Source of the DNA: Vibrio sp. STUT-A11
GTDB lineage: Bacteria; Pseudomonadota; Gammaproteobacteria; Enterobacterales; Vibrionaceae
NCBI RefSeq assembly: GCF_026000435.1
Contig: NZ_AP026764.1
Span: forward strand, 424,336 to 448,335
Length of the DNA: 24,000 bases
Direction: 5' to 3'
Below, piece after piece: positions 898-17,369 of the stretch. How positions within the stretch are numbered: the stretch's first letter is position 1; each line of letters opens with the position of its first letter. Under the pieces are notes generated by a model. The model did not search any database and was not told the DNA's origin. It saw only the letters and a program-made list of their open reading frames with translations. The translations under genes and the position numbers were made by a program.

Positions 898-2340
898 ATG
901 TTTGCAAGTATATTTGGACAACTACAAAAAATAGGGCGGGCTTTGATGCTGCCTGTGGCGGTGTTACCTGTGGCGGGCTTAATGCTCGGTCTTGGCAACG
1001 CTGGTTTTGCGTTTATTCCGGACGCGATCAATAAAGTGATGCTTGCCGCGGGCGACGGCGTGTTTGGCAACATGCAACTGATGTTCGCGGTTGGCGTGGC
1101 GCTCGGATTATCAAAGGGCAATGACGGTGCGGCAGCGTTAGCAGGCTTAGTCGGCCTTATCATAATGAATGCTTCTTTAGGTATCGTCGCTGGGCTTCGT
1201 GGTCTAGAGACCGACGCGACAATCATGGGCGTTGAGACACTGCAGACTGGGGTATTTGGCGGCATTTTTATTGGTGCAGTCGCCGCGATCATGTATAACC
1301 GCTTCTACAATATAAAGCTGCCAGAGTATTTAGGATTCTTCGCAGGTAAGCGATTTGTGCCAATCGTTACTGGTCTTTCCGCAATCGCTGTCGGTGCTAT
1401 TCTCGCGTTCGCATGGCCACCTATCGGACAGCTTCTTGACGCATTTTCTCATTGGGCCGCGTACCAAAACCCGGTTCTTGCTTGGGCTATATACGGTGCA
1501 GGTGAGCGTTCTTTACTCCCGGTTGGTTTGCACCACATCTGGAATGCACCGTTCTTCTTCGAAGTTGGTAGCTATATCGACCCAGAAACCGGCAAAGAGT
1601 TTACTGGTGAGCTAACTCGCTTCTTTGCTGGCGACAAAACCGCAGGTTATCTGTCAGGCGGCTTTATGTACTCAATGTGGGCACTACCAGCAGCAGCGCT
1701 GGCGATTTACCACTGTGCGACGCCTGAGCGTAAGAAGATTGTCGGTGGTTTGATGATGTCAGCAGCGTTGACCTCTTGGTTAACCGGTATTACTGAACCA
1801 ATCGAATTTACCTTCTTATTCGTCGCGCCAGTGCTTTACGTGATTCACATTTTCCTTACCGGTATTGCGTTTGCGATTACCTCATTTTTGGAAATCAAAC
1901 ACAGCACCGACTTTGCTCACGGCGCAATCCAGTTTTTCCTTTACTACCCAATGTCGAGCAACGCGTGGATGTTCATCATCATCGGTCCAATTTGGGCGAC
2001 GCTTTACTACGGTTTGTTCCGCTTCCTGATTGTGAAGTTGGATCTAAAAACGCCGGGCCGCGAAACCGATATTGCAGAACTGAAGATTGCCGGACAACCT
2101 GATGAAATTGCTGTAGATGTGGTGGCTGCACTTGGCGGAAAAGCTAACATTAAATCTGTTGACGCGTGTATCACTCGTCTGCGCGTCTCGGTTAAAGACA
2201 TTGCTAACGTTGATGTTGCTAAGCTGAAAGCACTTGGCGCACGAGATGTACTGGTGATTGGCGACAGTTTACAAGCGATTTTCGGTACGCAATCGGACTC
2301 AATTAAGTCAGAAGTACACAGCGTACTTGCGACCTCCTGA
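898..2340 (+). CDS. PTS glucose-family EIICB transporter (PtsG/MalX-like, no EIIA domain)
   Basis: ORF 835-2340, with the start moved to ATG 898, which is preceded by AGGAGG at 887-892. The N-terminus [33 protein letters not shown] parallels E. coli PtsG ([27 protein letters not shown], from memory). EIIC motif GITEPIEF is present. The C-terminal EIIB has the cysteine motif DACITRLRV. Confidence 0.85.
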
Positions 2341-2369
2341 TCTTACCTCCCCCCATCTGGGTAAGATTT

Positions 2370-2404
2370 GCCAACTTCCCTGCGAGGTTGGCTTTTTCGT
2401 TTTT
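2370..2404 (+). terminator. Rho-independent terminator after the PTS gene
   Basis: Stem GCCAAC (2370-2375) pairs with GTTGGC (2387-2392), followed by TTTTTCGTTTTT (2393-2404). It lies between convergent genes. Confidence 0.6.
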
Positions 2405-2428
2405 GCTCTATCGCAGATCGATGACGAA

Positions 2429-3352
2429 CTAAGAGCGCTCTAAAAGCTCTTTAAGGTTTCGGGCGATTTCTTCGGCCGCAAGCATGCCGCGGTTTAGTGA
2501 CCACAATTTTGGTGAAACCTCTATCACTTGCTGCTTTTTCACCGCAGTCAGCAGATTGAACAATGGGTTCTTCCGCCATTCATCGACAACATTGGGGGTT
2601 GAATACAGTCCAATCAGCAACCAATCTGGATTCGCTTTGAGAAGAAACTCAAAGCTTGTTGGCAAATAAGCCGTTTGAGTTTGATCTACAAGAGGACTGT
2701 TTAGCCCCAGGGTATTCAATACACCACCAGCGTAAGAGACCGGGCTATGTAACCACATCCCCTTATCCGAGACGACCCCAAACTGTATGGTGTCTTGGGT
2801 AGAAAAACGCTGTTTAAACTGCGCCATCGTTTGCTGATGCTGCTCGACTCGCTGCACCATTTGGTCTTGTTTGCCAATCGCAAAACCAATTTTGATTGCA
2901 GACTCAAGGTTCTCTTGATAAGTCTCCCCACGACTTTTTAGCAGCAATGTTGGCGCTATTCGCTGCAAATCCTGATAGATCGTACGATGACGCTCCGCGT
3001 CAGCAATGATGAGATCTGGCTTGAGTTGCGCAATCACTTCTAGGCTAGGCTGTGACCGAGCGCCGACAGACTGCCAAGGCTCCACTTTCTCTCGCACTGC
3101 TGCAATGACTCGTGTTGGGTCTTTATCATCAGCAACACCAACTGGCGACACATCAACCGCGGCTAAGGCATCCACAAAAGAGAATTCGAGTACAACGATA
3201 CGTTGTGGAATCGTTTCAATCTCGAATGTGCCCTGCTCATCTTGAACGGTACGAATCTGAGCCATAGATGAAGATGAAGCAATGGCAAGCATAAGCAACA
3301 TCAGTGAAAGTACATAAAAACGGCCACTGCCAAATCTAGTTAAATTTTCCAT
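2429..3352 (-). CDS. Periplasmic iron-siderophore/cobalamin-type substrate-binding protein (FhuD/FecB-like, class III SBP)
   Basis: 307-aa ORF with a signal-peptide-like N-terminus ([22 protein letters not shown]). Overall composition is SBP-like, and it sits directly downstream of a TonB-dependent receptor. The family call rests on general resemblance, not on a named motif. Confidence 0.7.
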
Positions 3353-3383
3353 ATCAATACACGCTCCAATACTAAGACCGGTT

Positions 3384-3409
3384 AAGTCGCCAACCTAAAT
3401 TGGCGACTT
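3384..3409. other. Perfect 10-bp intergenic hairpin between receptor and binding-protein genes
   Basis: AAGTCGCCAA (3384-3393), loop CCTAAA, TTGGCGACTT (3400-3409). The T-run lies only on the + side, so on the transcribed (-) strand it is a hairpin without a U-tract. Confidence 0.4.
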
Positions 3410-3437
3410 TTCTTTTAAAGATCCATAAACAAAGTGA

Positions 3438-5549
3438 TTAAAACTGGTAGTTCAGATCAAGCGTGTAGGAGCGTCCCGGTGCCGGATAACGACCAACAGG
3501 GCTAGTATCAATACCGCGGAAGTAATAATCTTCATCAAACAGGTTGTTCACGGCGACATTCATACGTAGTTTACCCGTTTCATCCTTGTATAAGTCCGTA
3601 CCTAAGTTAAAGTTCCAGACCATATAAGACGGCACTTTACCAGTCGCCCCCGTACTATCCTCAGAGCTGGTATTCGCGTTATCGGTGTACGCATCACTGA
3701 AATAGAAGCCAGATAAAGTGGTATCTACGCCAGAAAACACATAAGTCGCATCCCAGCCAAGTTGGTGCTTGGAGGAGAACGGCAGCTGATTGCCTTTGTT
3801 ATCACCGTCTTCTTCAAGTGTGGCATCTAAGTAGTTGTAGTTTGCACCTAAACTGAGTAACGGCAATGATTCCGGAACATATCGAGCTGATAATTCAATA
3901 CCCTGATGCAACGTTTTACCAATGTTGTCAAAAGTTTGCGTCGCGCTCTGCCATTGCAGTTGATCTTCAAAATCAACTCGGTAAATCGCCGCGTTGAAAC
4001 TGGTCTCGTTCTGAGTAAAACGCGCGCCCACTTCGTAGTTCCAGGCTAACTCACTGCCTTCTTCACCCAAACCTCGGATGTAAGCAATCTGAGGTGCCCG
4101 CAGAGATTTTTGTGCATTTGCGTAGGTCACCCACTGTTCATTGATACTATAAGCCAGCGTCAAACCAGGTAACCATTCCGTCACTTTATTATCTGCGCTT
4201 TGTTCTTTTCCAAGATCGTCAAAGCTCATATCAACCGATTCAAATCGCAATCCTGGCGTAATTTTAAGTGTATCGTTGAATAAACCAATTTCATTGCTGA
4301 TGTAACCCGCAAACGCATCGGTATCTAAGTGCCAGTCACGCGGTACGTTGGTGGTACCTCCAGAGATAGGCGTTTGCGTAAGTTTGTAATCGATGTCTTC
4401 GTTAACGTAACGAGCGCCAATAATCCAGTTTTGAGTAACAGACTTACCCTCGCCAAAATACATGGCTAGTTTCGGCTCGATACCATATACAGTAAATTCG
4501 CGAGGTGAGGTACGAATATCGGTGGAAGGCAAAGCAGGATCGGCCCAGTGTCCACCAGCACTATTAAAGCCCCACTGGAAAAAACGCTCAGATTGATGAC
4601 CAAAAGTGAGTAGCTCAAGTTCAGAACTGTCTGCAAACGCTAAATCGTGAATGTATTTTACGCTCCAACGCGTCGATTCACCCTGATACTCATCGTATTG
4701 GCGTTTCGACTGCTGTCGGTCTTGTTGGTAGTCTGTTGGGGACAGCGCTCCTGGCATCTGAGTGTCGGCTTCATAACGTTGAATAAACGCCTGAAGCTCT
4801 TGCGAATCACTCAGTAACCACTGAATTTTCGCTTGGAAATTTTTCACGTCCGTATCTGAATGTTCACGAAAACTCTCGCCTTTTAAAAAGTTGCCTTCCA
4901 GTTGCAATGCGAAAGTATCACTTAACCACCCTCCGGTTCTCAGGTAGAAATCGTTAAGCGGTGTATCTCCGTCTTCAAAGACTGTCAGACGATTACTTAT
5001 CTCTGTCTGCCAAGTGTGAGGAATCGCTTTGGTGACTAGGTTAATTACACCACCTACGTTGTTTGGTCCGTACTGAACCGCCGCGCCGCCGCGAACAACG
5101 TCAATTCGTTCAATCATAGACAAAGTCGCAGGGAAAATAGACTGACCGGTATGGCCATAGGGAGCAAGCGTCAACGGAATACCATCCATTAGCATTTGAG
5201 CATGACCACTGCGACTCGCATTTAAACCACGCACTGAAATGTTTGGTAGAACTCCCGTTCCAGTTTCATCCTGAACTTTAATACCAGGAACACTTTGCAG
5301 AGCACCATCAATTGAGCTTGCAGCTGTTTTTTTGATTTGCTCGGCGGTAATGATGGTTCGTGCTCCTGGGTACTCTTTAACGTCTTCAATTTCAGAGTTA
5401 CCTATCACACTACCGGTAACGACAACCGTTTCCATCGCTGACGTATTGACTTTAGAAGCTGAAGCACTTGCCTGCGGTACTATAGCCGTTGAGGCTAGCG
5501 AGGACACAATCGCAATAGATAAAGGATGCATGGTCAATAATTTGTTCAT
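3438..5549 (-). CDS. TonB-dependent outer-membrane siderophore receptor
   Basis: 703-aa ORF with a signal peptide, a TonB-box-like METVVVTG and a plug domain (ISVRGL, DGIPL, IERIDVVRGGAAVQYGPNNVGGVINLVTK). The C-terminal beta-barrel ends ...YTLDLNYQF. Confidence 0.85.
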   Translation of the reverse strand: MNKLLTMHPLSIAIVSSLASTAIVPQASASASKVNTSAMETVVVTGSVIGNSEIEDVKEYPGARTIITAEQIKKTAASSIDGALQSVPGIKVQDETGTGVLPNISVRGLNASRSGHAQMLMDGIPLTLAPYGHTGQSIFPATLSMIERIDVVRGGAAVQYGPNNVGGVINLVTKAIPHTWQTEISNRLTVFEDGDTPLNDFYLRTGGWLSDTFALQLEGNFLKGESFREHSDTDVKNFQAKIQWLLSDSQELQAFIQRYEADTQMPGALSPTDYQQDRQQSKRQYDEYQGESTRWSVKYIHDLAFADSSELELLTFGHQSERFFQWGFNSAGGHWADPALPSTDIRTSPREFTVYGIEPKLAMYFGEGKSVTQNWIIGARYVNEDIDYKLTQTPISGGTTNVPRDWHLDTDAFAGYISNEIGLFNDTLKITPGLRFESVDMSFDDLGKEQSADNKVTEWLPGLTLAYSINEQWVTYANAQKSLRAPQIAYIRGLGEEGSELAWNYEVGARFTQNETSFNAAIYRVDFEDQLQWQSATQTFDNIGKTLHQGIELSARYVPESLPLLSLGANYNYLDATLEEDGDNKGNQLPFSSKHQLGWDATYVFSGVDTTLSGFYFSDAYTDNANTSSEDSTGATGKVPSYMVWNFNLGTDLYKDETGKLRMNVAVNNLFDEDYYFRGIDTSPVGRYPAPGRSYTLDLNYQF

Positions 5550-10366: not shown

Positions 10367-10682
10367 AATCGTTCTCTATCTATTTATTTTATCGTTTCAC
10401 ATTTAGGTATTGGTAAGATATTGCATTTGCGTGCATTTTTTATGCTAAATGAGGATAGGTAACAGATTTTTCAGCCGATTAGATCTTGGTCACAGCGGAA
10501 GTTAGATAGCTGTAAAGTCCATTATAGTAGCAATTTAATACATATTTTAGCTTTTATTAATATTACTTTTATAACTCATAGTAAATAAAAGAAATTTTTA
10601 AATGTAAACGTAAGAAATTGACCCTTTAAACAAGAGTAATGCAGATCAATTAAGAAACTTTCTAGGGCCGTTTCCGATCTTG

Positions 10683-10720
10683 AAAAAGCAAAAAACCCGC
10701 ATTCAAACCGGAATGCGGGT
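10683..10720 (-). terminator. Strong Rho-independent terminator of the truncated OMP gene
   Basis: 10-bp stem: ACCCGCATTC (10695-10704) pairs with GAATGCGGGT (10711-10720). On the minus strand it is followed by TTTTTGCTTTTT (complement of 10683-10694). Confidence 0.7.
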
Positions 10721-10765
10721 GGCTTTAAGAGAGGTAAAGCAGTGGATTAGTAATGGAACTAAAAA

Positions 10766-10927
10766 TTAGAACGAGTATTTAGCTACAAACTTAAGGCCGT
10801 AACCGTCTTTCTTCTCGTTACCTTCCTGTTCTACAGAGCCAGTTTGAACGACAAAGTCTGTTTTGAATGAGTCAGTGACATCGTAGCCAAGACCTAGGTA
10901 TGCAGTTTGCGCTTCTACATTCGTACC
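10766..10927 (-). pseudogene. 3' fragment (53 codons + stop) of an outer-membrane beta-barrel/porin-like gene, cut by a transposon end
   Basis: Manual minus-strand translation: GTNVEAQTAYLGLGYDVTDSFKTDFVVQTGSVEQEGNEKKDGYGLKFVAKYSF*. It has alternating beta-strand character and the aromatic C-terminal F typical of OMPs. The frame stays open up to 10927 and stops being gene-like at the IR (10928). Its own terminator lies downstream. Confidence 0.5.
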
Positions 10928-10965
10928 GGGGTGTGAAGCCCAACGGTACGGTTTCGTACGTTAAG
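10928..10965 (+). repeat. Tn3-family 38-bp terminal inverted repeat (outer end at 10928)
   Basis: GGGGTGTGAAGCCCAACGGTACGGTTTCGTACGTTAAG is exactly 38 bp with the GGGG...ACGYTAAG architecture. From memory it resembles Tn3/Tn1000-type ends (GGGGTTTGAGGGCCAATGGAACGAAAACGTACGTT...). Confidence 0.7.
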
Positions 10966-10996
10966 CATTAAATCAAACAGTTAGAACGGTATGACG

Positions 10997-11034
10997 CTTA
11001 GGTAGACCCTACGATCACTGGTAAAAACCACCCC
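10997..11034 (-). repeat. Second 38-bp Tn3-family-like terminus in the opposite orientation
   Basis: The complement reads GGGGTGGTTTTTACCAGTGATCGTAGGGTCTACCTAAG. It is again exactly 38 bp and shares GGGTG at the outer end and TAAG at the inner end with 10928-10965, but the internal sequence is unrelated. Confidence 0.4.
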
Positions 11035-11121
11035 AAAATCAGGATATGACATAACCTATGTGTCACTACTGGCTGTGTCATGACTTAAATGACATGCTTG
11101 TTTTTTGTTAGCGTATGGAAT

Positions 11122-11133
11122 GGACTTCCTCCC
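11122..11133 (+). repeat. Left subterminal inverted repeat of the IS110-family element
   Basis: GGACTTCCTCCC is the exact reverse complement of 12437-12448. Confidence 0.7.
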
Positions 11134-11192
11134 TATCACTCAGCCGTTAGTTCTGAGATGATAAATTCACCATTTCATACGGAGATAACAAC

Positions 11193-12167
11193 ATGGCTGT
11201 GACTGTATTAGGTATCGACCTAGCAAAAAATGTGTTCGCATTGCATGGTGTTGACCACAAAGGCAATACCATTTTATGCAAACCCAAAGTAAGTCGGGCC
11301 AAGCTGTTAGAAACGGTAGCCAATATGCCACCGTGTCTGATTGGAATGGAAGCATGTAGCAGCGCTCATTTTTGGGCCCGATTATTCAAAAATGTCGGCC
11401 ACGAAGTTCGCCTCATCGCTCCTAAGTTTGTCTCTCCTTATCGACTGTCTGGCAAAGCAGGGAAAAATGATGCTGCTGATGCTCAATCTATCTGTGAAGC
11501 AGTTCAACGTCCTCATATGCGATTTGTTAGCATCAAGTCAGAAGAGCAGCAATCGATTCAATGTTTGCACCGAGCTAGGCAGGGCCTAAATGAAGAAAGG
11601 ACGGCAGTATGCAACCGCATTCGTGGTTTGCTCGCTGAGTTTGGTGTGATTGCTCCTTTATCACCGGAGCGATTGCGTAACGAGTTCGAGAGCATGAAGG
11701 TTCACCTTCCAACCTTAGCCGCAACTTGCATGGATGAATTATTTCTTCATATAGACAACATTGAGCGCAGGCTTTTAAAGTTCGACCGACTGATTAAAGA
11801 GACGGCAGAGCAAGATGAACGATGCCGACTATTGATGCAACTAAAGGGGGTTGGACCTATGACAGCCAGTGCTCTAGTATCAGCGATCTCTGACGGAAAA
11901 GAGTTTCGTAATGGCCGTCAATTGGCGGCCTGGTTGGGTTTAACGCCTTCTCAATACAGCAGCGGAGGGAAACCAAAATTAGGGCGAATTACTAAAGCTG
12001 GTGACAACTATATTCGTAGTCTGCTTGTGCAGGGGGCGCGTTCAATGATGGCTAGCGCCGGACGAAAAGACGATCCGCTCAGTAAGTGGGTCTGTGATGT
12101 CAAAGATCGCCGTGGTTACTGGCGAGCCGCTATTGCTTTAGCTGCAAAAAATGCACGACACTGTTGA
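11193..12167 (+). CDS. IS110-family transposase/recombinase (DEDD RuvC-like N-domain plus C-terminal serine Tnp domain)
   Basis: 324-aa ORF with GGAG 9 nt upstream. N-terminal motifs are LGIDLAKNVF, GMEACSSAHFW and KNDAADAQSI. C-terminal motifs are LKGVGPMTASALV and GLTPSQYSSGGKPKLGRITKAGDNYIRSLL. Confidence 0.9.
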   Translation: MAVTVLGIDLAKNVFALHGVDHKGNTILCKPKVSRAKLLETVANMPPCLIGMEACSSAHFWARLFKNVGHEVRLIAPKFVSPYRLSGKAGKNDAADAQSICEAVQRPHMRFVSIKSEEQQSIQCLHRARQGLNEERTAVCNRIRGLLAEFGVIAPLSPERLRNEFESMKVHLPTLAATCMDELFLHIDNIERRLLKFDRLIKETAEQDERCRLLMQLKGVGPMTASALVSAISDGKEFRNGRQLAAWLGLTPSQYSSGGKPKLGRITKAGDNYIRSLLVQGARSMMASAGRKDDPLSKWVCDVKDRRGYWRAAIALAAKNARHC

Positions 12168-12436
12168 GCAATACTTCACTATGGTGAATCATTCGAAAAT
12201 TGTTATTCAACCTAAATAAATCTCTTACCACCAATGATGACAACGCAAATATGATAAGGGTTAAGACCCCGCAAGAGGTGCCTGAGAAAACGTTAGGATG
12301 TTAAATATCCGATTAGCGTATGAGGTTCTTGCGAGCGTCTTTCATTTTGGTCCGGAACAGAATATTCCAGTATGACCGCTTATAGTACTGCATCTTAATC
12401 TTCATTGTGATTGCGTTCAGAGCACCCATTGACATC
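12168..12436 (+). ncRNA. Candidate element-encoded guide RNA (bridge/seekRNA-like) in the 3' non-coding tail
   Basis: No ORF. TTAGCGTATG (12313-12322) equals left-junction word 11108-11117. CTTATAGTAC (12379-12388) equals right-junction word 12448-12457. A small stem-loop is possible at 12350-12377. The transcript, its ends and its fold are not established. Confidence 0.4.
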
Positions 12437-12448
12437 GGGAGGAAGTCC
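12437..12448 (+). repeat. Right subterminal inverted repeat of the IS110-family element
   Basis: GGGAGGAAGTCC is the exact reverse complement of 11122-11133. A perfect outward-facing TTGACA lies just inside at 12429-12434. Confidence 0.7.
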
Positions 12449-12484
12449 TTATAGTACAATATTTTCCGAATCGTCGTGTGACCC

Positions 12485-12732
12485 CTATGAGCCTGCTGTC
12501 ACCCTTTGACGTGGTGATATGGATGACGGATGGCTGGCCGCTGTATGAATCCCGCCTGAAGGGAAAGCTGCACGTAATCAGCAAGCGATATACGCAGCGA
12601 ATTGAGCGGCATAACCTGAATCTGAGGCAGCACCTGGCACGGCTGGGACGGAAGTCGCTGTCGCTCTCAAAATCGGTGGAGCTGCATGACAAAGTCATCG
12701 GGCATTATCTGAACATAAAACACTATCAATAA
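12485..12732 (+). pseudogene. insB: insB' C-terminal fragment of IS1 transposase
   Basis: ORF 12478-12732 encodes ...[81 protein letters not shown], which is the C-terminus of IS1 InsB. insA and the N-terminal part of insB are missing. Confidence 0.9.
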
Positions 12733-12749
12733 GTTGGAGTCATTACCCT
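12485..12749 (+). mobile_element. IS1 remnant: terminal ~265 bp including the right inverted repeat
   Basis: The sequence matches the IS1 end from memory (TATGAGCCTGCTGTCACCCTTTGACGTGGTGATATGGATGACGG ... ATAAGTTGGAGTCATTACC). The terminal IR ends at 12749. The inner breakpoint is approximate (about 12460-12485). Confidence 0.9.
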
Positions 12750-12887
12750 TTTTTCAACTTCTGATGGATGCGAGTGATTGAACTCATACATTAATGTTTT
12801 CCCACGAAGTCTTTTTTCAGGTAAGCCTTCGCACATATCGGTAAATAGCTTGCCTGCTTTTATTTTTTCTGTCATCGACATGTTCAT
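12750..12887 (-). pseudogene. lacA: lacA' : first 46 codons of galactoside O-acetyltransferase, truncated by IS1
   Basis: Manual minus-strand translation from ATG (complement of 12885-12887): MNMSMTEKIKAGKLFTDMCEGLPEKRLRGKTLMYEFNHSHPSEVEK. E. coli LacA is MNMPMTERIRAGKLFTDMCEGLPEKRLRGKTLMYEFNHSHPSEVEKRESL.... The frame abuts the IS1 IR at 12749/12750. Confidence 0.85.
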
Positions 12888-12913
12888 TTTTAACATTCCG
12901 TCCTGATAAGTTG

Positions 12914-12943
12914 GTCGGATAAGGCGATCGCGCCGTATCCGAC
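12914..12943. repeat. Enterobacterial REP-like palindrome in the lacY-lacA spacer
   Basis: GTCGGATAAGGCGATCGCGCCGTATCCGAC, in which GTCGGATA pairs with TATCCGAC and GGCG with CGCC. It occupies the position of the REP in the E. coli lacY-lacA spacer. Confidence 0.6.
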
Positions 12944-12952
12944 ATTAATTTC

Positions 12953-14251
<1,299 letters not shown>

Positions 14252-14257
14252 TTATTA

Positions 14258-17369
<3,112 letters not shown>

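Follow-up and report, generated by a model that had tools for sequence, protein, structure and literature searches.

For the insertion sequence (IS) IS621, a bridge RNA with two internal loops has been described, and in either loop one guide addresses the bottom strand and the other the top strand (Durrant et al. 2024, PMC11208160; Hiraizumi et al. 2024, PMC11208158). Its left-target guide (LTG) and left-donor guide (LDG) contain the core and bind to the bottom strand by base pairing, while the right-target guide (RTG) and the right-donor guide (RDG) are reverse complements (PMC11208160). Elements of the IS1111 family (ISEc11, ISKpn4, ISPa11 and ISPst6) encode a seekRNA 3′ of the transposase gene (tnp), in which the segment matching the top strand lies 5′ of the one matching the bottom strand, both overlapping at the insertion point (Siddiquee et al. 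2024, PMC11187229). The RNA of IS1111 elements is located in their right end and its donor loop can sit at a multi-loop. Here, we report on a 1341-bp element of the IS1111 group which was found in a stretch of 24,000 nucleotides of Vibrio sp. STUT-A11 (contig NZ_AP026764.1, positions 424,336 to 448,335, forward strand). This whole stretch is called the window and all unassigned coordinates refer to it. The 3′ non-coding end of the element very probably encodes a bridge/seek RNA of approximately 155 nt on the transposase strand, whose two loops carry guides that read the target and the IS ends. The evidence consists of the mapped IS ends and target, a conserved covarying structure, and the correspondence between loops and flanks across relatives.

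Compared with the IS1111-family seekRNAs (PMC11187229), the RNA of the window IS shares the position 3′ of tnp, the order and overlap of the two target-binding segments, a candidate junction promoter and the natural re-targeting of close relatives that have the same stems. What separates it from them is the target, a Tn3-family terminal repeat instead of GTGAAAATACTG, attC or repetitive extragenic palindromic (REP) sites. Moreover, the published description of the 82-nt seekRNA centres on target matches, whereas a second loop matching both IS ends was resolved here by sequence alone. In common with IS621 are the two internal loops with a bottom-strand and a top-strand guide each, a 2-nt core shared by target and donor, and the same recombinase domains. 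By contrast, the IS621 RNA lies in the left and not in the right end, the guide order within each loop is reversed, in the window RNA an outer stem closes a multi-loop from which both arms emanate, the subterminal repeats comprise 12 bp instead of 2–3 bp, and the core is TA instead of CT. Since the mechanism is already established and published for this family, the finding opens no new question. Its value is that all four guides of an IS1111-type RNA were read from nothing but sequence, and that empty sites confirm the target.

Among the elements named in annotated records, IS5708 is the closest relative; it belongs to the IS1111 group and its name comes from enterobacterial plasmid records. 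Its transposase (340 amino acids) is 64% identical to that of the window IS, the RNA scaffold is the same, its right end likewise reads TTATAG-TA, its left end is nearly the same (TGGAAG versus TGGAAT) and it is inserted at the same point of Tn3-family terminal repeats. On the other hand, the guide words and the subterminal repeat sequence differ and the tails are only approximately 75% identical over approximately 100 nt. Isoforms are by ISfinder convention roughly at least 95% identical at the DNA level. The window element is a relative of IS5708 and not IS5708, namely a separate IS at 64% identity occurring in Vibrio plasmids.

Partridge and Hall are said to have shown in 2003 that IS4321 and IS5075 target the terminal repeats of Tn21-family transposons. 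Like the window element, these two insert in one orientation into a 38-bp Tn3/Tn21-family terminal repeat, and an IS5075 copy was present in such a repeat in the sources L008 and L013. Nevertheless, only the kind of target is shared: the IS5075 transposase is 36% identical, insertion takes place approximately 9 bp further out at TT, the ends are others, and the tail gave no match to the covariance model R1 described below (none in L008). In L013 (K. pneumoniae pKPN-3967, approximately 1900–3560), IS5708 and IS5075 reside in one 38-bp transposon end-repeat, 8 bp apart and each at its own position.

Ends of the element and its target site

The following features of the element and its flanks were determined.

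11108..11115, + strand: left target TTAGCG and crossover TA, from the inner portion of a Tn3-family terminal inverted repeat of 38 bp; the TA is equally assignable to the IS, and the left flank is common to empty L008 and occupied L002
11116..12456, + strand: insertion sequence of the IS1111 group, IS110 family, relative of IS5708; from empty versus occupied sites and near-identical plasmid copies
11116..11121, + strand: TGGAAT, the terminal extension on the left (right donor, RD), from the mapped junction to the left inverted repeat; can pair with the RDG by five Watson-Crick pairs and one G-U pair
11122..11133, + strand: left subterminal inverted repeat GGACTTCCTCCC
11193..12167, + strand: DEDD transposase gene, truncated copy of 324 amino acids; PF01548 and PF02371, NF033542
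12429..12434, + strand: outward-facing −35 box TTGACA, followed by a 17-nt spacer and TAGTA
12437..12448, + strand: right subterminal inverted repeat GGGAGGAAGTCC
12449..12456, + strand: TTATAG, the terminal extension on the right (left donor, LD), and TA
12457..12485, + strand: 29 bp from the outer portion of a Tn3-family terminal inverted repeat (CAATATTTTCCGAATCGTCGTGTGACCCC), a variant other than that of the left flank

The original prediction, made by a model from the letters of the window, had drawn attention to two 10-nt words in the tail that repeat the two junctions of the element, to a perfect 12-bp inverted repeat and to the TTGACA box. All of them were read back in the sequence. 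Word 1 (TTAGCGTATG) occurs at 11108–11117 and a second time at 12313–12322, word 2 (CTTATAGTAC) at 12448–12457 and a second time at 12379–12388; GGACTTCCTCCC at 11122–11133 is the exact inverse of GGGAGGAAGTCC at 12437–12448, and TTGACA stands at 12429–12434. The words had been regarded as copies of plain flanking DNA, with a TTA near their 5′ end as a possible crossover core. Both views had to be revised. The window reads TTAGCG-TA, the IS and then CAATATT...GACCCC, and the IS is located inside a 38-bp Tn3-family terminal inverted repeat whose halves form the flanks. TTAGCG is the left target (LT), CAATATT... the right target (RT), TGGAAT followed by the repeat forms RD, and the repeat followed by TTATAG forms LD. 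The actual crossover is TA, of which the empty site has a single copy and the occupied site one at each junction. It occupies positions 7–8 of word 1 and 8–9 of word 2 and leaves the assignment of the 1341 bp (11116–12456) ambiguous by this dinucleotide. Word 1 is composed of 6 nt of the target, TA and 2 nt of the IS, word 2 of 7 nt of the IS, TA and 1 nt of the target.

Near-identical copies (99.6–99.8%) of the element were detected on two Vibrio alginolyticus plasmids, copies with approximately 80% identity on V. coralliilyticus and V. harveyi plasmids. Similarity among the aligned copies ends left of 11108 and right of 12485, at ...GTGTGACCCC. Joined together, the conserved flanks yield CTTAGCG...TTTTCC...GACCCC, the reverse complement of the 38-bp Tn3-family terminal inverted repeat (GGGG...CGCTAAG). 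The predicted uninterrupted site TTAGCGTACAATATTTTCCGAATCGTCGTGTGACCCC was found at 100% identity in four Vibrio plasmids, beside a resolvase-type recombinase gene; one of these plasmids (empty, L008) has the same left context as the occupied L002. The window's left context runs on uninterrupted in L095 and L096 as TTAGCGTACGTTTTCG. The search for empty sites, which had been suggested along with the prediction, was thus successful, and both words lie exactly across the junctions. An IS extending to 12485 was considered, as all copies are alike up to GACCCC; this was dropped once the predicted empty site had been detected and the flanks recognised as halves of the Tn3-family repeat. Every copy with preserved junctions was inserted at the same point of the Tn3-family repeat, in the same orientation and without target duplication. 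The 12-bp perfect repeat with extensions of 6 nt and of 6 nt plus TA agrees with the subterminal repeats of the IS1111 group (7–17 bp with short extensions), and so does the non-coding layout, with 77 nt before the ATG and approximately 240 nt after the intact stop codon (289 nt after the premature one). By their insertion, these IS split a terminal repeat that the Tn3-family transposon presumably needs to move.

The transposase matched the Pfam domains PF01548 (62.6 bits) and PF02371 (93.4 bits) and the NCBIfam model NF033542 'IS110 family RNA-guided transposase' (326–340 bits, cut-off 140), and it contains the serine motif GL-P----S(t)G of the C-terminal Tnp domain (LGLTPSQYSSGG), in agreement with the IS110 family, whose enzymes combine this domain with a DEDD (RuvC-like) domain at the N-terminus. 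The recombinase gene had been predicted to end at 12167 and to be followed by a tail of approximately 290 bp. It turned out to be a copy with a premature stop: the window has TGA at 12165–12167 where all other copies read TGG (W325), and the intact copies, which are present in V. alginolyticus FDAARGOS_108 and strain 2-1 among others, are 48 nt longer, encoding 340 amino acids. Because the open reading frame (ORF) of the window is a truncated copy, the true 3′ non-coding tail comprises only approximately 240 nt. A second difference is G>T at 11487 (A99S), while the RNA region is identical to that of the plasmid copies. In every feature that could be tested, the element is a member of the IS1111 group with a bridge/seek RNA, and an unstudied relative of IS5708.

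Conserved structure of the 3′ tail

Nine tails were aligned, comprising the window IS, four Vibrio relatives, three IS5708 copies and one Salmonella relative. The RNAalifold consensus contained 37 pairs, 13 of them with compensatory changes, and revealed the following parts.

12252..12407, + strand: bridge/seek RNA, an outer stem closing the junction of a target-binding and a donor-binding arm (RNAalifold, model R1, covariation)
12252–66 / 12393–407, + strand: outer stem
12270..12333, + strand: target-binding arm with a 12x12-nt internal loop; compensatory changes relative to IS5708 (CGCAAGA/TCTTGCG versus CGTGAGA/TCTCACG)
12270–76 / 12327–33, + strand: P1
12281–83 / 12323–25, + strand: P1b
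12296–12310, + strand: P2 hairpin
12335..12391, + strand: donor-binding arm with an 11x11-nt internal loop
GCG 12335–37 / TGC 12389–91, + strand: outer stem of the donor arm
12349–12377, + strand: P3 inner stem-loop with a variable, covarying tip

The covariance model R1 was built from the nine-tail alignment and searched against 82 other sources, the matched ones being mostly 45–64% identical relatives from a scan of genome contigs. It matched 70 other places, all of them on the transposase strand just 3′ of tnp, and the window itself at 12246–12411 with 177 bits. In the R1 alignment, 94.1% of the cells contained standard pairs, compared to 35–48% when the partners were slid by 1–3 columns. 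Changes on both sides were observed for 33 of the 37 pairs, and the covariation score reached 0.578 against at most 0.09 in the slid controls. The R1 matches, the paired cells and the double changes demonstrate a conserved structure on the transposase strand, as in bridge RNAs and seekRNAs. This supported the earlier proposal that the tail encodes a structured guide RNA of the IS110 type and confirmed the GGTC..GACC hairpin, which is P3 (12349–12377) and is backed by covariation. The two words, however, do not flank this hairpin as the two sides of one loop, as had been assumed. The arms contain two unpaired symmetric internal loops (12284–95 versus 12311–22 and 12338–48 versus 12378–88), and the words form the 3′ sides of these two different loops.

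Two identical R1 matches in tandem (2590–2770 and 2957–3137) were detected downstream of a single transposase gene in a metagenome-assembled genome of the Coxiellaceae (L085), which suggests that the guide-RNA region may have been duplicated there.

Probable guide segments and their match to target and ends

Four guide segments were assigned to the internal loops.

12286..12293, + strand: right-target guide GAAAACGT, 5′ side of the target loop; reverse complement of A+CGTTTTC
12313..12320, + strand: left-target guide TTAGCGTA, 3′ side of the target loop; LT plus TA
12339..12345, + strand: right-donor guide CTTTCAT, 5′ side of the donor loop; complements A+TGGAA(T) of the IS left end
12379..12387, + strand: left-donor guide CTTATAGTA, donor loop, 3′ side; repeats the IS right end and TA in the same sense

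LTG and LDG look like same-sense copies of DNA because, by the rules of IS621, they pair with the bottom strand including the core (PMC11208160). The notion that the two 10-mers read out donor and target specificity was supported, word 1 representing the left side of the target and word 2 the right end of the element. The reverse-complement guides, which had been missed in the original prediction, are present at 12286–12293 (right target) and 12339–12345 (right donor). Nor does the architecture depart from described members, as had been suspected, since the guide order is that of IS1111-type seekRNAs (PMC11187229). In the target loop, LTG TTAGCGTA and RTG GAAAACGT read TTAGCG-TA-CGTTTTC, overlap at the crossover and covary with the target; in the donor loop, LDG CTTATAGTA is the exact right end, and RDG CTTTCAT faces ATGGAA with one G-U pair. 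The RTG was placed at 12286–12293 because the register of the guides is set by IS5708 and the V. maritimus element (L010). The IS5708 RTG ATATCCTA complements its own right flank TAGGATAT and is opposite TA+GGATAT in L013; the word at the RTG position of L010, GAAAGTGT, is opposite ACACTTTC. AATATT/ATTCCA (12361–12369, inside the hairpin) was also considered as right-target/right-donor guide and rejected, as this segment is the variable covarying tip of P3.

To what extent the loops follow their flanks was assessed for 57 loci by exact matches of at least 7 nt between each loop and its own flank window, with cross-locus and wrong-strand controls. This longest-match flank test replaced an automatic detection of the ends by subterminal repeats, which failed or gave spurious results in more than half of the distant loci. 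Own-flank matches were obtained for the LTG at 43 of the 57 loci, for the LDG at 41, for the RDG at 36 and for the RTG at 28 (versus 5.7% for the flanks of other loci). Wrong-strand controls yielded 2–6 matches per 57 loci and 14 for the RDG loop; the RDG result is the weakest of the four. The RDG/left-end pairs of relatives covary as well (CTTTCAT/ATGAAAG, TCCCAT/ATGGGA, TTTCAT/ATGAAA, TTACA/TGTAA). The covariation of internal words and junctions in homologues, which had been named as a check, was hence observed across these loci. None of the findings that would have spoken against the prediction was made: the internal words track the junctions, the structure of the tail is conserved, and the ends lie at the words.

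The matches might be due to chance or a by-product of AT-rich, low-complexity sequence. In 20,000 dinucleotide-preserving shuffles of the 269-nt tail, tested against junction windows of 24–28 nt, a match of at least 10 nt to the left junction occurred with P = 0.004 and to the right junction with P = 0.010, so that each single 10-mer match (P approximately 0.004–0.01) is not negligible over a whole-genome scan. Both matches together were not obtained in any of the 20,000 shuffles, and the family comparison already refutes this explanation, since the same loop positions copy other flanks where the targets are unrelated: the loop CGAAGTACCA of L093 faces TGGTACTTCG, and L081 and L082 show loop/flank matches of 9 nt. 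The probability of a chance origin is therefore negligible.

It is extremely unlikely that the words act at the DNA level instead, as additional transposase-binding or end-like sites inside the IS with no RNA involved. Such sites would account for words that are exact DNA copies of the junctions and for the promoter scan, which found none for the tail. By contrast, the words are situated in unpaired loop sides, while the helices flanking them keep their pairing through compensatory changes in 70 elements, and these changes argue for selection on a single-stranded fold. Furthermore, the other half-sites recur in the partner segments as reverse complements, as required for an RNA guide addressing two strands, and the RNA is essential in related IS (PMC11187229).

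Another possibility is that the RNA is real, with only its target loop being relevant as in a minimal seekRNA, and that CTTATAGTAC does not act as a donor guide but duplicates the left-target guide in degenerate form. CTTAGCGTAC and CTTATAGTAC indeed differ at only two positions (LT and LD are identical at 8 of 10), the 82-nt seekRNA of ISEc11 sufficed for movement (PMC11187229), and donor ends hardly vary in the close family, where covariation is consequently weaker. We consider this very unlikely. Among distant relatives, the second loop corresponds on its 3′ side to the right end of its own element and not to the target (ATGTATGG in L093; TTGTAG in many loci, beside unrelated LT words), and on its 5′ side to the left end (e.g., TCCCAT/ATGGGA). 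The donor loop of IS621 has the same design.

Several observations weigh against the reading of the tail as a two-loop guide RNA. The alignment used for the covariation analysis was fitted to R1, which favours the model. A scan of 10500–13000 with the existing Rfam models (E up to 10), as had been recommended, revealed no bridge/seek RNA family and only weak unrelated matches. The single-sequence fold is not unusually stable (z = −1.05), and the minimum-energy fold pairs the guide loops differently; because the single-sequence fold is uninformative, we relied on the comparative structure. In a consensus promoter/terminator scan, none was found for the RNA. For LTG and RDG, the cross-locus backgrounds were high, as targets (CTAACGAA) and ends are common to many relatives. 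RDG and TGGAAT form one G-U pair and one terminal mismatch, and the RTG fits the window's own right flank CAATATT poorly (approximately five of eight positions, including wobble). Finally, the window transposase is devoid of its last 16 conserved residues. Due to this truncation, the window copy is probably not autonomous and an intact transposase copy in trans is probably needed.

Within the guide words, the last two bases of word 1 (TG, up to 12322) gained no support as guide from covariation, and the last base of word 2 (12388) is C, the first target base. It is conceivable, albeit rather unlikely, that the same-sense guides exceed half-site and core and copy the product junctions (LT-TA-TG and LD-TA-C), whose additional bases would then be handshake positions of the bottom-strand guides. 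The base following LDG+TA is C in the window IS and G in IS5708 and equals the first base of the cognate right target in each case. On the other hand, no covariation was seen for the left extension, where TG faces GG of IS5708. The handshake guides of IS621 have been described only next to top-strand guides. An extension of this kind could bias the reaction or help the RNA to recognise an integrated copy for excision.

The guides of IS5708 differ from those of the window IS at both target positions. Its LTG is TTAACGAA instead of TTAGCGTA and stands beside a left flank reading TTAACGAA; its RTG is ATATCCTA instead of GAAAACGT. IS5708 is therefore tuned to another repeat variant (TA-GGATAT). 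Most members of the transposase clade (L020, L016, L014, L010 and many more) have left-target guides of the form (C/T)TA(A/G)CG(A/T)A, which suggests that the whole clade may specialise on the inner ends of Tn3-family terminal repeats. The target of L020, TTAGCG..TACGATTTTTTCCGAAT, resembles the Tn1721/Tn501 repeat. The window IS, IS5708 and the elements in L010, L014 and L020 constitute a natural series of re-targeted guides tracking variants of Tn3-family terminal repeats, and are suitable material for studying mismatch tolerance and reprogramming.

Mixed flanks, candidate junction promoter and surroundings

While the RTG fits the window's right flank poorly, it fits the repeat variant TTAGCGTA|CGTTTTCG perfectly (sister variant TACGTTTTC). 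Three target variants can be compared: the predicted cognate TTAGCGTACGTTTTC, the window's flanks TTAGCGTACAATATT and the H2 variant TTAGCGTACATTTTC. The RTG-cognate site is present in L095, L096 and L005. Within the window's left context (10920–11115) it is uninterrupted in a V. parahaemolyticus plasmid and a Citrobacter plasmid, and it also adjoins a 130-bp fragment of the window IS with 100% identity in V. rumoiensis. The 196 bp on the left (10920–11115) match a context that elsewhere continues TTAGCGTACGTTTTCGTTCC...CACCCC (e.g., L095, 2501–2720), whereas the right flank belongs to the CAATATTTTCC... variant. The window copy and the copy of NZ_CP119336 thus combine halves of two repeat variants, one on the left and the other on the right. 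A third repeat variant that would make the window's flanks a simple insertion was looked for and none was found. The mixed flanks most likely arose by recombination between two IS copies residing in different repeats, and both homologous and IS-mediated exchange would fit. They point to IS-associated rearrangement among transposons of resistance plasmids.

In L096, the left-flank context adjoins blaKPC-2 on a small IncQ plasmid. At the right junction of L002 (V. alginolyticus FDAARGOS_108 plasmid, approximately 2852), the flank lacks AAT (TAC|ATTTTCC) compared to the otherwise identical empty L008 and is in this respect nearer to CGTTTTC, the cognate of the right-target guide.

The TTGACA box had been proposed as a junction promoter. 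Its position is conserved in relatives, TTGAC being found 17–21 nt before the right end in 24 of 55, and junction promoters are known in IS1111-type elements (PMC11187229). In the linear form, the consensus scan called no promoter at TTGACA. Only the joining of right and left end in the circle junction would complete TAGTA to TAGTAT, while the integrated state reads TAGTAC. TTGACA-17-TAGTAT may hence represent a circle-junction promoter, in support of the proposal.

By analogy with IS621 and ISEc11, the RNA is presumably made, binds the enzyme and directs recombination. The programmed target would be TTAGCG-TA-CGTTTTC; measured from the inner end of the Tn3-family terminal inverted repeat (38 bp), it would be at a distance of 8–9 bp. 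The DEDD/serine recombinase with its bound RNA would synapse the circularised IS with the repeat, and strand exchange would occur at TA. The circle would carry the junction CTTATAG-TA-TGGAAT (...GGAAGTCCTTATAGTA|TGGAATGGACTTCC...) together with the TTGACA-17-TAGTAT promoter. For these steps, the window copy would probably depend on the intact transposase in trans.

Just outside the GACCCC end, an internal IS1 fragment is located at 12486–12750 (C-terminal part of InsB, ORF 12478–12732). It is followed by a truncated lacA-like ORF (12726–12896), lacY (12953–14206) and lacZ (14258–17332). Upstream of 10900, there is a cluster of sugar ABC transporter genes almost devoid of plasmid matches. This arrangement gives the impression of a mobile-DNA mosaic with a lac operon of the E. 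coli type. A GC-rich hairpin at 12913–12952, situated between lacY and the truncated lacA, weakly resembles the REP-derived naRNA4 family, its 30 bits being below the gathering score of 59.5.

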